From: an uncultured virus (IMG/VR IMGVR_UViG_3300037010_000217)
Taxonomy: Duplodnaviria; Heunggongvirae; Uroviricota; Caudoviricetes
Virus record (IMG/VR): IMGVR_UViG_3300037010_000217
DNA length: 20,000 bases
Strand: one strand, 5' to 3'
Shown: positions 2,594 through 8,227 of the stretch, one piece after another
Position numbering within the stretch: position 1 is the stretch's first letter
Layout of the letters: each line of letters begins with the position of its first letter
The notes under the pieces: generated by a model
What the model was told of the DNA's origin: nothing
Databases searched by the model: none
What the model saw: the letters and a program-made list of their open reading frames with translations, nothing else
Translations under genes and position numbers: made by a program

Positions 2594-2760
2594 TTAACCA
2601 ACTCACATTTATAGGTTTTATGTCCTATATAAAAACTTCCTAGTCGCTCACAATCTTTACCTATACTAGATTCAGCTATCATCCATGTAGTAGATAATAC
2701 AAACGCTACTATTGTTACAACTGTTACGCCTATGACTAGTGACAAAAAAGAATCGTTCAT
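2590..2760 (-). CDS. Small single-TM membrane protein (56 aa)
   Basis: Below ORF-track cutoff. MNDSFLSLVIGVTVVTIVAFVLSTTWMIAESSIGKDCERLGSFYIGHKTYKCELVK; GAGGT RBS; ATGA overlap with next gene. Confidence 0.75.
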   Translation of the reverse strand: MNDSFLSLVIGVTVVTIVAFVLSTTWMIAESSIGKDCERLGSFYIGHKTYKCELVK

Positions 2761-2774
2761 ATTTTTACCTCAAA

Positions 2775-3017
2775 TTATTCTTCATTAGAGACTTTTACTG
2801 TTAAATTTGGATCTGTCACAATAATTACTTTAGTTTCAATCTTATTTATTGCATCAATACTAAAAGAGATACCAAAGAAAAATAGTGCTACAGTAACTAA
2901 GTACAAAGCACCAGATTCATCATTTGTAGAAAAGTAAGTGTATATAGCAAATATACTTAGTATGTATGCAATTACATCAGCCGAGTTAATATTTAATGTG
3001 AATTCTCGAATATTCAT
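2775..3017 (-). CDS. Small two-TM membrane protein (80 aa), holin-like topology
   Basis: Two hydrophobic segments (VIAYILSIFAIYTYF; ALYLVTVALFFFGISFSI); AAGGGA RBS. Confidence 0.7.
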   Translation of the reverse strand: MNIREFTLNINSADVIAYILSIFAIYTYFSTNDESGALYLVTVALFFFGISFSIDAINKIETKVIIVTDPNLTVKVSNEE

Positions 3018-3046
3018 TAGATTGTCCCTTATATTTATTTAGTGAT

Positions 3047-3685
3047 TCATGCTTTTTTAGATTTGTTTGTTGGTTTAGCTTTTGGTTCATTAATAGGTTT
3101 AATGCCTTTAGCTTTTACGTATGTTGGCTTATCCATGAAAGTATGTTTACCAACTTTAGCAACTGGAGTGTACTGTTTAACCCATACATGCTTCTTAGTG
3201 TCTACTTTAGACACATTAGCATAATATCTAGCACCATTAGCTAGATCAGGTAATTTACCTTTCAGCTCTAGATCAGCAATATGTAAAGCTTCTTTCCATT
3301 TATCTTCTTCAGCAATTTCAATAGCATCTTTATTTATAGTCCATGAGAATTGTTTAGGTTGATAAATTACTTCATAGTAAGTCTTAGGGAATTCAGGATC
3401 CTGTAATCTATGTCTTACTGTATTAGTAACAGCAATCATACCCTCTTTACCTTCACCTCTAGCTTCTTGATAGGCATTAAGAGCTATAGCTTCTTTCTGA
3501 TCAGGAAGAATAGGAGCTAATCTATTAGGTTTAGTTAATTGACCGACTTCTACTCCATATACTTCTGGATTAGACTCTAAGTCTTTCTGTACTTTATCAT
3601 AATGATAAAGCATTCCAAATGCAGGAGTAATTATTACTAGTAACCATACTAGATTAGTTAACTTATTTTTTAAGTAATTATTCAT
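3047..3685 (-). CDS. Cell wall hydrolase, SleB/Hydrolase_2 family, with N-terminal TM anchor
   Basis: ALNAYQEARGE (catalytic Glu), VIYQPKQFSW, GARYY and VGKHTF motifs. GAGGTG RBS favours ATG at 3685 over GTG at 3694. Confidence 0.9.
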   Translation of the reverse strand: MNNYLKNKLTNLVWLLVIITPAFGMLYHYDKVQKDLESNPEVYGVEVGQLTKPNRLAPILPDQKEAIALNAYQEARGEGKEGMIAVTNTVRHRLQDPEFPKTYYEVIYQPKQFSWTINKDAIEIAEEDKWKEALHIADLELKGKLPDLANGARYYANVSKVDTKKHVWVKQYTPVAKVGKHTFMDKPTYVKAKGIKPINEPKAKPTNKSKKA

Positions 3686-3790
3686 GAGATTCACCTCTTA
3701 TTAGGTTAAGGATACCTTATACCTAAATTAAATAATTTAAGTTATTTAGTATTTAGGCTTATAAACGAAGGGTTATATTTAGACTATCTT

Positions 3791-4734: not shown

Positions 4735-5124
4735 CTATGAGATTTGCATTTTATTTCCTAGGAAGCTTAACATTTCTACATAGTACTCAAAGAAGCACTT
4801 ATTAGGCTTGATATTACAAGCTACCATTCTATTATGGATATTAAGTGCTTCATTGTATGTACTTGAGTACCTTTCCAGATACCCTATAAGTTTGGTTAGT
4901 CTTTTTTCTGTATTTGGGTTATTTAGGTCTTTGACCCAAGTTAAGTCCAATACTACTTTAGGATTCAATCCTAATTCAGCTAAAATATTAGAGCAGAATT
5001 CTGTGACATGCACTTCATCAAATGCTCCTAGTTGATCTGCGTAGTATTGGTCATGGTCTCCTTGAATAATGTTATTGCTGATGTAATATGTTAAAGTATC
5101 TGCAGTGAAAACTTCGTATTTCAT
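4735..5124 (-). CDS. Hypothetical protein (129 aa)
   Basis: Strong AGGAGG RBS, directly downstream of the RNAP gene. Confidence 0.8.
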   Translation of the reverse strand: MKYEVFTADTLTYYISNNIIQGDHDQYYADQLGAFDEVHVTEFCSNILAELGLNPKVVLDLTWVKDLNNPNTEKRLTKLIGYLERYSSTYNEALNIHNRMVACNIKPNKCFFEYYVEMLSFLGNKMQIS

Positions 5125-5170
5125 ATAACCTCCTAGGTTATTTAGTTGATTGATTCAATATTGAAACTGT

Positions 5171-6907
5171 TTACGATAGAATGTATTTAGCAGATTGCAT
5201 CTTAACGTCAAGATCATCACATAGTTTCTCAATCTTAATATCTTCACCAGATATTTGAGATAAGATACTAGACAGGTAATCTTTTTTAGCTAAGTCGATC
5301 ATGATATCTTTAAAGATACCACGCATTTTCTTAGCATTGTTTGGGTGACACACGAATGAGTCATGGATATGAACTACTTCAAATGGACAACGTCTAATGA
5401 GTTCTCTTGCTACCATAGCATCAAAGCTATGAGTTAGATTAGCCATTAGGTGTGTATACGATCCTGAAGCACCTAATACACTTTTAGTATATTCAAAGGT
5501 TACATCATCTTCTAATGTTACCATCAAGGTTTCATTGTAAGAGTGACGTAATACTACTTCAAAGCCATCAGGCATAGTCCATCTATGCTCAGCTGTATCT
5601 TTCCATATAGAAGGAATAGCTTCTAATAGCTCACTTGGGCCAGTAAAACCTTTACTAATTGCCTTATAGAATGCCTTTAACTGATTCTCATTAAATGCTT
5701 TCTTAGGTGTAGCAACAGAGTTATACCAATGAGTCATGAAAGGCTTCTTAGCTTTATTACGATCTACAGCATCAGTTGCTGATAATTCGCTATTCATAAG
5801 ATTTACCACATATGAATACACATCTTCACGTTTACCTGTATCTATTAAATTTACTTTAGCAGCTGTGGTTTCGCATCCAGTCAGTGCAGCTAAGATCTGC
5901 AGACCAGAAGCTGTACAGTCCCACATTACAGGTAGACCAATAGGCATACCATCTAATGCATCTAAATATGCCATTACAGCCTTTGTGAATAGAATTGGTT
6001 CTGCTATATCATCTAAGTCTATGGTTACTTCACCATCCACTACAGATACTTTAGAAGCTACTAGTTCATATCCTTTAGCTAAGCGATCTGTCCAAGATAG
6101 TTTATCGTAGCCTGCTGTGTTAGCAATCCACATAACTATTTCTTCTAGACCTTCCTCAGTGCATACTTCTGCTTTAGCAAAGTTAAGTGTAGCTTTGTGG
6201 TACTCACTGGATTGTAGATTTAACTCATACCCTTTTGAATACATACGACCACGCTTGTCATACTGCCACATAAAGTAGAATTTTCTATCTCCTATATCAT
6301 CTACTACGTCCTTAACCTTCTTCTTATCATAAGAAGTTACATCTTTAAACGTATCAGTAATATAACGATCTAGTTTAAACCCTACAGACTGTAGCTTGTT
6401 TAGTACTGGTAGACAGATCTCACCATCATGGTGATTCTTACTACCTAGTAGAGCACTGTGCTTAATGGTGTAATAACCTCCGTTATTATTAGAGGTCCAG
6501 CTTTTAGGCTCTACTAATAGTGGTGGTAGAACTGTTGTCTGAGCTAGTTCTTGCTCTTGAGCATGTGGTAGAAATATATTGTTCTTAATATATAAACTAC
6601 CTTCATTAGATTGGATAATGGTATAAATACCGCTTTTAGCACCTACCATAAGGTAATCTTTCTTGATTACCTCCTCTGGTTCAACGCATAACAAACTAGC
6701 TAATCTAGCTATAAGCCCTTGAATAGGCTTATTCTTACTATTCTCTAGTACAGCTAGTAGTAAAGCTGCTGCTACTTCCTCAGTCATACCTAACTGAGTT
6801 AGTACTAATGTGTCTGTGCTATCAATTAGATCATAAATTCTAGAGGTAGCTAACCTCTTAGAGTATTTGTTCTCTAATTGGATTTGTAATTCATATAAGT
6901 TTTGCAT
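5171..6907 (-). CDS. T7-family single-subunit DNA-directed RNA polymerase, N4 RNAPII-like (gp15+gp16 equivalents in one ORF)
   Basis: DKRGRMY (DxRGR), motif A WDCTASGLQ, motif B RNKAKKPFMTHWY, W(T)MPDGF, ANLTHSFDA, motif C IHDSF; C-terminal YILS resembles the N4 gp16 end as I recall it; GAGGA RBS. Confidence 0.93.
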   Translation of the reverse strand: MQNLYELQIQLENKYSKRLATSRIYDLIDSTDTLVLTQLGMTEEVAAALLLAVLENSKNKPIQGLIARLASLLCVEPEEVIKKDYLMVGAKSGIYTIIQSNEGSLYIKNNIFLPHAQEQELAQTTVLPPLLVEPKSWTSNNNGGYYTIKHSALLGSKNHHDGEICLPVLNKLQSVGFKLDRYITDTFKDVTSYDKKKVKDVVDDIGDRKFYFMWQYDKRGRMYSKGYELNLQSSEYHKATLNFAKAEVCTEEGLEEIVMWIANTAGYDKLSWTDRLAKGYELVASKVSVVDGEVTIDLDDIAEPILFTKAVMAYLDALDGMPIGLPVMWDCTASGLQILAALTGCETTAAKVNLIDTGKREDVYSYVVNLMNSELSATDAVDRNKAKKPFMTHWYNSVATPKKAFNENQLKAFYKAISKGFTGPSELLEAIPSIWKDTAEHRWTMPDGFEVVLRHSYNETLMVTLEDDVTFEYTKSVLGASGSYTHLMANLTHSFDAMVARELIRRCPFEVVHIHDSFVCHPNNAKKMRGIFKDIMIDLAKKDYLSSILSQISGEDIKIEKLCDDLDVKMQSAKYILS

Positions 6908-6964
6908 ATCTATTCCTCGTCAGGTTGATATCAGTTACTATCTAATATAAATACTAATAAATAT

Positions 6965-6992
6965 GCCCTATACCTATTACTAGGTATAAGGC
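6965..6992 (-). terminator. Stem-loop between the early 89-aa gene and the RNAP gene
   Basis: Minus strand GCCTTATACCTA-GTAA-TAGGTATAGGGC (GNRA loop), weak U-tract. Confidence 0.65.
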
Positions 6993-6998
6993 TTAAGA

Positions 6999-7268
6999 TT
7001 ATTTCTTGAGAATATCCATGATACTTTTCTTCTCATGTACTTTTTCTTCAAGTACCTCTAAGACTAAGCTACCATCTGCGATAGCTTGAATTACATCCAT
7101 AAGTTCTACCTCATACCCTTGAAGGGTTAATTTACCCTTGTTAGTTAGATTCAAGAGTAGACCATATACACTATTTTCACCATTTGGTGTACGAACAGCG
7201 TAAGTTACACGGTTAGCGTTGTTGCTAGTATTGTTAGTTGATGCATTTGCTTTTACGATTAAAGCCAT
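6999..7268 (-). CDS. Early protein (89 aa)
   Basis: GGAG RBS; preceded by a 23-bp promoter motif copy and followed by a hairpin. Confidence 0.8.
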   Translation of the reverse strand: MALIVKANASTNNTSNNANRVTYAVRTPNGENSVYGLLLNLTNKGKLTLQGYEVELMDVIQAIADGSLVLEVLEEKVHEKKSIMDILKK

Positions 7269-7314
7269 TTGAATTCTCCAATGATTAATGATTAATTGAT
7301 GCTGATTTAAATAG

Positions 7315-7337
7315 ATTCCACAACTCAGAGACCCTAA
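7315..7337 (-). promoter_or_regulatory. Putative phage-RNAP early promoter, copy at 7315
   Basis: ATTCCACAACTCAGAGACCCTAA; repeated upstream of three consecutive early genes. Confidence 0.75.
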
Positions 7338-7431: not shown

Positions 7432-7659
7432 TTATGGTGTTTGTGTAGTTGTGTCATTACTACGCATTGCTTGCACTCCGTATGCAAGTGCTGATAATAC
7501 TGCAACACCGCCTAATGCTAAGACAGCTACGTATCCTTTAGTGCCCTCACTTACTACGTCTAGCATAGATGCAGTCATTACTGCGTCCATACTTTCCTCT
7601 ACTGATGTAGCCTGTAAGAACTTACCTGTTGTACTCTTAGCGAATTGTTTACGTGCCAT
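7432..7659 (-). CDS. Early membrane-anchored protein (75 aa)
   Basis: AAGGA RBS; C-proximal TM YVAVLALGGVAVLSALAYGV. Confidence 0.8.
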   Translation of the reverse strand: MARKQFAKSTTGKFLQATSVEESMDAVMTASMLDVVSEGTKGYVAVLALGGVAVLSALAYGVQAMRSNDTTTQTP

Positions 7660-7690
7660 GATGATATTCCTTATTCAAATATTAGATTAA

Positions 7691-7713
7691 ATTCCACAAC
7701 TCCGAGACCCTAA
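7691..7713 (-). promoter_or_regulatory. Putative phage-RNAP early promoter, copy at 7691
   Basis: ATTCCACAACTCCGAGACCCTAA, 22/23 identical to the 7315 copy. Confidence 0.75.
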
Positions 7714-8170: not shown

Positions 8171-8204
8171 AATAATAAATACCTCAATTAAGATTAAATA
8201 ATAA

Positions 8205-8227
8205 ATACCATAACTCAGAGACTGTAA
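8205..8227 (-). promoter_or_regulatory. Putative phage-RNAP early promoter, copy at 8205
   Basis: ATACCATAACTCAGAGACTGTAA, 19/23 identical to the 7315 copy. Confidence 0.7.

Follow-up and report, generated by a model that had tools for sequence, protein, structure and literature searches.

The Polymerase Gene and Its Product

The 20,000-nucleotide stretch of the uncultured Caudoviricetes virus IMGVR_UViG_3300037010_000217 (the window) contains an RNA polymerase (RNAP) gene of the type of coliphage N4 RNAPII, an enzyme composed of the two subunits gp15 (RNAP1) and gp16 (RNAP2). In the window both halves are encoded by one open reading frame (ORF) of 578 codons, which fills positions 5171–6907 of the minus strand without interruption, as seen in the ORF list and its translation; the strand had been left unstated in the preliminary description of this DNA. 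Sequence comparison identifies this ORF as the phage's own RNAPII, a T7-family single-subunit polymerase orthologous to N4 gp15:gp16 in the form of one 578-residue polypeptide, and the lineage carrying it was likely never split. The gene and its parts, all on the minus strand, are as follows.

5171–6907, minus strand: single-chain N4-RNAPII-type RNA polymerase gene, 578 codons plus stop at 5171–5173 (translation, Pfam, PHROGs, PDB matches, fold)
6161–6907, minus strand: gp15 (RNAP1)-like half, residues 1–249, with reduced N-terminal domain, thumb and DX2GR motif (6dt7_A match, model)
6245–6259, minus strand: DX2GR motif, D217–R221 (translation)
6122–6178, minus strand: continuous junction, residues 244–262, spanning the RNAP1-end/RNAP2-start point of N4-like phages (ungapped against T7)
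5174–6160, minus strand: gp16 (RNAP2)-like half, residues 250–578, palm and fingers (6dt7_B match, model)
5918–5920, minus strand: motif A, D330 (aligns with T7 D537)
5723–5761, minus strand: motif B, R383..K387..Y395 (translation)
5384–5389, minus strand: C507/P508, the site of the ~65-residue insertion of N4 gp16 and most cultured RNAP2 proteins, with no insertion in the window
5360–5365, minus strand: motif C, H515–D516 (D516 aligns with T7 D812)

The translation matches PF00940, the T7-like single-subunit RNA polymerase family of Pfam, with 85.7 bits against a cutoff of 22 (E 4e-24); RPOL_N at residues 119–151 scored 22.1 bits, under its 30.1-bit cutoff. PHROGs 2051, 414 and 2166, annotated as RNA polymerase or N4-like RNA polymerase, match at E values of 1e-57 to 1e-84, and PHROG 2166 extends across the junction. 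The best solved chains in a phmmer search of the PDB are the two subunits of N4 RNAPII: the large subunit 6dt7_B (gp16) aligned with residues 257–515 and 491–576 (E 4e-43) and the small subunit 6dt7_A (gp15) with residues 126–248, corresponding to gp15 positions 122–267 of 269 (E 4e-14). T7 RNAP reached only E 5e-8. Matching of both subunits by one query indicates that the single chain crosses the N4 split at about residues 249–256 (window ~6140–6163).

The preliminary description had recognized a single-chain N4-RNAPII-type polymerase, and the Pfam, PHROG and phmmer matches bear this out, all motifs quoted there being present in the translation. Its alignment by eye of the junction with T7 RNAP is reproduced by BLASTP, which aligns residues 208–382 with T7 412–588 and leaves that segment ungapped. 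Residues 267–331 of N4 gp16 have no counterpart in the window protein, T7 having only 8 residues there, and thus the statement that the gp16 insertion is missing also holds, as does that of compact size (578 aa versus 673 in N4 and 883 in T7).

The DX2GR motif, D330, R383/K387/Y395, H493 and H515–D516 are all present and occupy invariant columns of the family alignments, with D330, H493 and D516 equivalent by BLASTP to T7 D537, H784 and D812, respectively. The names used here for the catalytic motifs (DX2GR, motifs A, B and C, and the His before motif C) are those of the literature. An AlphaFold2 model, built on an alignment of 11 single-chain relatives, has a predicted local distance difference test score (pLDDT) of 88.4 and a predicted template modeling score (pTM) of 0.86, and Foldseek gave E 1e-21 for it. 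Its residues 1–578 align with residues 29–883 of T7 RNAP (Z 35–37.5, 487–567 residues aligned, 18–21% identity), the yeast mitochondrial RNAP is matched with Z 37.6 and a root-mean-square deviation (rmsd) of 3.2 Å over 565 residues, and residues 251–578 align with 6dt7_B with Z 30.4, rmsd 3.2 Å and 35% identity. The structure prediction suggested in the preliminary description therefore returns a T7-type fold. As modeled, the enzyme is complete in this fold, with its catalytic motifs intact. The two-gene, heterodimeric character of the N4 RNAPII subfamily, whose genes are divided between the DX2GR block and motif A, is lacking in the window protein, which is encoded by one ORF.

Integrity of the Reading Frame

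Three public sequencing runs contain the gene; two of them (X1 and X2) may be the source samples of the window, and the third (X3) belongs to another study. A 3300-base contig of X1 covers positions 5111–7100 with 0 differences, a 2219-base contig of X2 does the same from position 5115, and overlapping unitigs of X3 are identical, including 6075–6569 across the junction. No joint or indel is reported within 5171–6853 in the contigs and unitigs of the three runs. A variant contig over 6044–6176 differs by substitutions only, and all seven listed fall at third codon positions of the minus-strand frame (codons 251–278), which is the pattern expected of a translated junction.

Beyond the window, one uninterrupted frame over both halves was found in 20 of 21 IMG/VR loci encoding relatives (L021 was matched in several frames), and single-frame relatives of 571–593 aa with 36–92% identity are present in NCBI, ENA, JGI and Logan assemblies. 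The preliminary description had named an assembly error at the junction as a possible source of the single frame, that is, a missed stop or a frameshift that merged two real genes. Such an artefact finds no support beyond the window being a metagenomic assembly with X1 and X2 possibly its own source; given the indel-free coverage in three runs, the identity of the X3 unitigs from a different study, the confinement of variation to third codon positions and the same frame in relatives from several sources, it has practically no chance of being the explanation. None of the nine runs listed is an RNA run, which says nothing about expression.

Genomic Context of the Phage

The window consists of a minus-strand arm of small ORFs, which includes the polymerase gene, and a divergent plus-strand arm with phrog_2109, the large terminase TerL (phrog_38) and a virion structural protein (phrog_2125). 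These divergent early and late arms match the layout of N4 and of G001, an IMG/VR contig of 73,858 bases (CheckV 100%), and the polymerase gene sits in the arm corresponding to the N4 early/middle region. TerL is 62–65% identical to the TerL proteins of cultured Schitoviridae over 94–99% of its length. On this sequence evidence the phage is N4-like (Schitoviridae-type).

G001 is collinear with the window (TerL 97%, a 241-aa protein 95% and an ATPase fragment 97.6% identical) and carries both a 578-codon polymerase frame and a 3300-aa ORF matching the virion RNAP family phrog_2206 (E 2.9e-223). The exact window protein is also recorded on a 72,302-base contig. Virion RNAP and single-chain RNAPII occur on the same phage or assembly in at least three clades, represented by G001, by G002 and G003, and by Campylobacter. 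The presence of unsplit RNAPII beside virion RNAP indicates that the split is not required for the three-polymerase programme.

The polymerases of the window and G001 are only 49% identical, most neighboring genes being 75–98% identical (window 4735–6907 versus G001 29800–32693), and a 129-aa ORF lies on opposite sides of the polymerase gene in the two genomes. Such a pattern suggests that, between the two phages, an allele was replaced or the polymerase locus was locally rearranged. With TerL 97% identical, a neighboring gene moved and an allele exchange that appears real, it could be supposed that a horizontally acquired T7-like (Autographiviridae-type) polymerase replaced the split pair and that the window enzyme is not an RNAPII orthologue at all. 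However, the N4-type sequences including the window protein are separated from seven T7-like polymerases in a 104-row tree with support of 99.8/100 (Shimodaira–Hasegawa-like approximate likelihood ratio test, SH-aLRT, and ultrafast bootstrap, UFBoot). The best solved relative is N4 RNAP2 with 35% identity versus 18–21% for T7, and the phmmer E values (4e-43 versus 5e-8) are ordered likewise. The small size and reduced N-terminal region are as in N4 RNAPII, and the exchanged allele of G001 falls in the same single-chain clade. We regard acquisition of a T7-like enzyme as very improbable.

Distribution of Single-Chain RNAPII

A search of 1.84 billion cluster representatives with a profile made from 11 single-chain proteins yielded 8247 matches at E ≤ 1e-3, 1092 of them at E ≤ 1e-30. 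The best 150 profile matches were pooled with earlier matches, 16 named phage proteins and 14 IMG/VR ORFs into a set of 196 sequences, of which 178 have a complete C-terminal domain; the 18 fragments were left out. Among the 178, the N-terminal half is on the same chain in 80, and 91 start 5–17 residues before the conserved I-A-N block, that is, at the N4 split point; the other seven are T7-like. The list was ranked by score against a single-chain profile, so single chains are over-represented in these counts. P0105 was dropped as a single chain since its 117-residue N terminus is unrelated, P0067 and P0042 were dropped as split forms, being N-truncated continuous ones, and the ambiguous P0061 and P0057 were coded as unknown.

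By these sequence matches, the window protein is part of a large metagenomic family of single chains of 541–690 aa, those of its own clade being 571–578 aa long, and is not a rarity. The preliminary description thus overstated how unusual the single chain is: relatives are numerous in metagenomes, RefSeq already lists some with a generic name, and PHROG 2166 covers the junction.

Among 50,697 deposited phage genomes, the gene found no megablast match, and the protein matched 1204 records, all with less than 60% identity. The best 60 of these are all two-gene forms, with two to four tblastn pieces and separate RNAP1 and RNAP2 annotations. No single-chain form was among the best 12 rows for each of three other single-chain representatives searched in the same genomes. 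A junction-spanning query gave single-piece matches in ~70-kb phages only by read-through of a stop or by an unrelated RNAP1 tail. Delftia phage RG-2014 and Enterobacter phage SABI were rejected for the first reason, tblastn having merely read through an in-frame stop. Vibrio phage PhiImVa-1, considered for a different split site, was rejected for the second: its ORF_27 (429 aa) proved to be an ordinary RNAP1 extended at the C terminus by a long unrelated tail, and ORF_28 begins at query residue 254.

Single chains do occur in genome assemblies of cultured bacteria. The RefSeq protein WP_169777771.1, "DNA-directed RNA polymerase [Campylobacter curvus]," falls within the 90% cluster of P0054, and the Campylobacter concisus CCUG 19995 assembly encodes a 643-aa single chain twice (L053/L054), beside phrog_2109, TerL and phrog_2125, on contigs that also hold a 3434-aa virion-RNAP frame. 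The N4-like gene set of C. concisus, including tail fiber genes, lies on contigs of 565,635 and 63,229 bases (L054:9989–11920 and flanks) and may, from its gene content, belong to an N4-like phage that is integrated or carried in Campylobacterota. No paper tying an N4-like phage to Campylobacter was found in the literature search.

The protein P0002, 92% identical to that of the window, is deposited at NCBI as a hypothetical protein of an archaeal metagenome-assembled genome (Ignisphaera sp.). The 3,072-base contig that carries it most likely came from a phage and was misbinned.

A second interruption site was observed in three close relatives of the single-chain clade, which stop at V-K-K-P inside motif B; separate proteins of 188–189 aa start at the next profile position. 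This interruption differs from the N4 split (L043:1670–3171, P0011–P0013, P0151, P0172). In L043 a Cys-rich ORF starts 143 nt past the stop and the contig ends there; this ORF has no significant Pfam family, and positions 2700–3171 have no Rfam match to a group I intron. A metagenome scan with P0012 returned nothing, and an alignment-based scan returned 10 loci, with only L043 relevant to the interrupted form.

Structure of the Junction and Probable Re-fused Forms

Junction length was measured as the distance from D217 of the DX2GR motif to D268 in an alignment anchored by a profile hidden Markov model. It is 51 in the window protein, 50–52 in the seven T7-like polymerases and, among the 79 single chains whose alignment extends across the junction, 49–51 in 68. 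Measured from DxxGR to G.DK, continuous forms have 47–50 residues, and cultured split pairs, with their halves summed, have 52 (N4 and Axy13), 61, 63, 70, 70, and 157; the sum could be measured in seven of eight cultured pairs, the motif not being found in that of Delftia.

Six single chains (P0092, P0050, P0073, P0038, P0058, and P0148) have junctions of 56–67, with 5–16 extra residues. Each of these junctions includes a leader of the kind found at RNAP2 N termini, that of P0058 having an internal Met, and all six chains are nested among split forms on the trees. From their sequences they look like natural re-fusions of split pairs. P0097, with a junction of 55, is ambiguous. The window protein has no extra junction residues and keeps a T-x-E-G element that is common to the T7-likes and the deep-branching single chains and is absent from split forms.

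In cultured phages the gap within the gene pair can be as small as 10 nt (CB1), 12 nt (SABI) or 24 nt (Delftia phage RG-2014), and in the latter two the genes are in frame and were read through by tblastn. Across cultured Schitoviridae, the number of small ORFs lying between the two RNAPII genes ranges from 0 to 9 (L036, Alteromonas phage PT15-A5; L038; L039; L035). The 338-aa RNAP2 of Alteromonas phage PT15-A5, a cultured phage with split genes, has no gp16 insertion, indicating that the split preceded the insertion.

Phylogeny and Ancestral State

Trees were inferred from the C-terminal region (query residues 245–578). Three were built: FastTree with 168 rows, IQ-TREE with 168 rows (LG+C20 with posterior mean site frequencies, PMSF, quick search), and IQ-TREE with 104 rows (LG+F+G4, SH-aLRT/UFBoot); the two IQ-TREE trees were rooted on the T7-likes. 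Besides the 18 fragments, 10 near-duplicates were left out, and the 104-row set, a hand-picked subsample, is also without the long branches P0093 and P0100.

In both IQ-TREE trees the earliest branches are continuous single chains, namely P0090, the P0052 group, P0136 and the Campylobacter-type clade. The window clade comprises 13 rows, all continuous (94.9/88, 104-row tree). All 12 cultured RNAP2 proteins and all insertion-bearing forms belong to a crown clade of 40 rows (96.7/80), or 90 rows with SH-aLRT 96 on the larger tree, and the window clade lies outside this crown on both IQ-TREE trees. Every lineage that diverges between the root and the window clade is continuous except for nested or tip split forms. 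Under a two-state Markov model (Mk2) with the re-fused forms coded as split, the marginal probability of the continuous state is at least 0.92 at every node from root to window in the 104-row tree and at least 0.977 in the 168-row tree. We therefore consider it likely that the window lineage was never split and that its unsplit state was inherited from an ancestor shared with the T7-like polymerases, as opposed to being a secondary fusion. The split would have arisen later, in the lineage or lineages leading to cultured Schitoviridae, and the ~65-residue gp16 insertion later still.

The competing explanation is that the ancestor had separate RNAP1 and RNAP2 genes, that the RNAP1 stop and a short spacer were lost, and that later trimming made the junction look continuous. 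Fusions do happen in this family, as the six putative re-fused chains indicate, and the small gaps between adjacent cultured pairs make fusion mechanically easy. An N4-type pair, if joined, would have a spacing of 52 versus 48–50 in continuous forms, so that a small deletion after fusion could produce an apparently continuous junction. A constraint uniting the window clade and the crown in one clade costs 42.3 log-likelihood units and is not rejected at 5% by the approximately unbiased (AU) test (p = 0.065), so that the window clade may be a close relative of the split crown, and the fitted Mk2 reversal rate exceeds the fission rate. Against a re-fusion stand the T7-like junction length with the T-x-E-G motif that split forms lack, the continuity of all 13 sampled members of the clade and of the lineages below it save nested or tip split forms, the high probability of the continuous state at every ancestor, and the position of the window clade even in the constrained tree, where it is sister to the whole crown and not nested inside it. 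Re-fusion thus appears rather unlikely, and ancestral continuity is the better-supported reading of these sequences.

The points just given in favor of fusion are joined by several others that weigh against an ancestral, N4-type single chain. The backbone between the window clade and the crown has UFBoot of 67–80, and the window's larger group is weakly supported as monophyletic (46, 168-row tree). The state is labile, with 11–12 parsimony changes, or 20–32 with reversal forbidden. Forms with a continuous junction are found inside the crown (P0043, P0044, P0066, P0068, P0051, P0139, P0140, and P0088), for which the same site must have been split independently several times, unless recombination or an error in the tree is responsible. 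Recombination is plausible considering the divergence of the window and G001 polymerases and the moved 129-aa ORF; a polymerase identity of 49% beside neighbors of 75–98% also means that the gene tree need not follow the phage tree. The split status of metagenomic proteins refers to predicted proteins without contigs, at least two of which proved to be N-truncated continuous forms. The 20-kb window itself contains no virion RNAP, and no gp1, gp2 or Drc-like cofactor was recognized among its small ORFs by PHROG and Pfam. According to PMC7145618, the single-stranded-DNA-binding cofactors (gp2/gp1 of N4 and Drc of LUZ7) are non-homologous between genera, so failure to recognize one in the window is uninformative.

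The preliminary description had proposed an ancestral, pre-split form and not a re-fusion. This proposal is strengthened by the junction length, the trees and the ancestral-state probabilities, but the phylogenetic exclusion of re-fusion is not formally significant. In the same way, the suggested check for nesting deep within split clades places the window clade outside the crown on two trees, with the AU test leaving a sister position to the crown at p = 0.065.

Taking all this together, we lean slightly toward a broader view in which the window lineage is a living pre-fission RNAPII and its clade (571–578 aa) contains the smallest natural single-chain T7-family polymerases seen in this analysis. 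The two-gene form would then be derived and dispensable, having arisen, perhaps repeatedly, at a single permissive site on the surface, with re-fusion in at least six lineages and swapping of alleles between near-identical phages.

Proposed Role in Infection

By homology with N4 and LUZ7, the window polymerase gene would be transcribed early by the injected virion RNAP, and its product would then transcribe the middle (replication) genes; an early-made, middle-transcribing RNAPII is described for these two phages in PMC4496689 and PMC7145618. The enzyme would probably depend on a single-stranded-DNA-binding cofactor and not read duplex promoters itself. Enzymes of the N4 RNAPII subfamily show no activity on duplex DNA alone and are brought to AT-rich middle promoters by such cofactors. 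Its specificity-loop hairpin (residues 456–478, predicted strands 456–466 and 469–478) contains E459, E466, D467, D468 and E472 versus one Lys. A negatively charged specificity loop is a property of N4 RNAPII, as quoted in PMC7145618, and the similarly acidic loop makes a cofactor-dependent, single-strand-templated mode of transcription likely for the window enzyme by analogy.

Other Features of the Window

Two features lie immediately upstream of the polymerase gene.

6914–6918, minus strand: GAGGA ribosome-binding site, 6 nt upstream of the polymerase ATG (read from sequence)
6962–6995, minus strand: hairpin (inverted repeat; arms of 15 nt, loop of 4 nt) in the interval separating the upstream ORF 6999–7268 from the polymerase gene

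The inverted repeat at 6962–6995 is followed by an A+T-rich stretch and is a candidate terminator-like or promoter-hairpin-like element. Further upstream, a motif of 22–33 nt is present in three copies (7305–7337, 7681–7713, and 8195–8227), two of which have a single mismatch over 22 bases (0 expected by chance). It lies ~25–45 nt upstream of the minus-strand early ORFs 6999–7268 and 7432–7659 and may serve as an early promoter or operator. On the other side of the polymerase gene, the early/middle arm encodes a 215-aa protein (3047–3694, minus strand), 80% identical to its G001 homologue, in which Pfam recognizes a Hydrolase_2 cell-wall hydrolase domain (E 2e-20) and which matches endolysin families of PHROG. 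No tRNA was found in the window.

Comparison with Known Systems

The published accounts consulted treat the heterodimer as the defining form of N4-type RNAPII. A 2015 review states that all but two virion-RNAP phages have a heterodimeric RNAPII and calls the origin and advantage of this arrangement unclear; the 2019 LUZ7 paper (Nucleic Acids Research; PMC7145618) speculates that splitting drove the acquisition of cofactors, and the enzyme is still given as heterodimeric in a 2026 N4 paper (PMC13434306). In the literature searched, most subscription journals lying outside it, no account was found of a single-chain N4-type RNAPII from a phage with a virion RNAP, and a prior mention may exist. 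The window sequences and their single-chain relatives are already public under generic annotation, and no known mechanism is overturned.

Virion-RNAP phages with an unsplit RNAPII are numerous among environmental contigs and Campylobacter genome assemblies, and the unsplit, split and re-fused enzymes form a natural series for comparison. If the ancestral reading is true, the question of why N4 RNAPII is a heterodimer becomes directly testable with natural orthologues. A T7-family polymerase of 571–578 aa, ~100 residues below the "minimal" N4 enzyme, is also of interest for structure–function work on minimal RNAPs, although its immediate use as a tool is restricted by the cofactor and single-stranded template that it likely requires.

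Compared with N4 RNAPII (gp15 RNAP1 plus gp16 RNAP2; PDB 6DT7), the window enzyme belongs to the same T7-like subfamily, has the same reduced N-terminal region and acidic specificity-loop hairpin, and is encoded in the early/middle arm of an N4-like genome, divergently from TerL and the structural genes; a role as middle-gene transcriptase is presumed by analogy. It differs in being one polypeptide, with neither start and stop codons nor extra residues at the split point, in lacking the ~65-residue insertion between the H493 helix and motif C, and in its length of 578 aa versus 269 + 404 = 673 aa. The RNAP1/RNAP2 pairs of cultured phages are at most 31–34% identical to it.

With T7 RNAP it shares the single chain, colinearity over the full length, an identical junction spacing, equivalents of D537, D812, and H784, and the absence of a gp16-type insertion. 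T7 RNAP is 883 aa long, the window protein being 305 residues shorter; as judged from alignment end-points, ~175 residues are probably gone from the N-terminal domain and thumb (query 1–207 versus T7 29–411) and ~78 from the fingers (query 383–442 versus T7 589–726). The window protein also falls outside the T7-like group and is encoded by a 70-kb N4-like phage whose relatives have a giant virion RNAP.

The Campylobacter single chains (WP_169777771.1 of C. curvus; L053/L054) resemble the window protein in being unsplit, in the T7-length junction (P0054 clade) and in divergent synteny with phrog_2109 and TerL. They are larger (641–671 aa), ~29% identical to the window protein and members of a deeper-branching clade, and they are found, generically annotated, in genome assemblies of cultured bacteria and not in environmental phage contigs.

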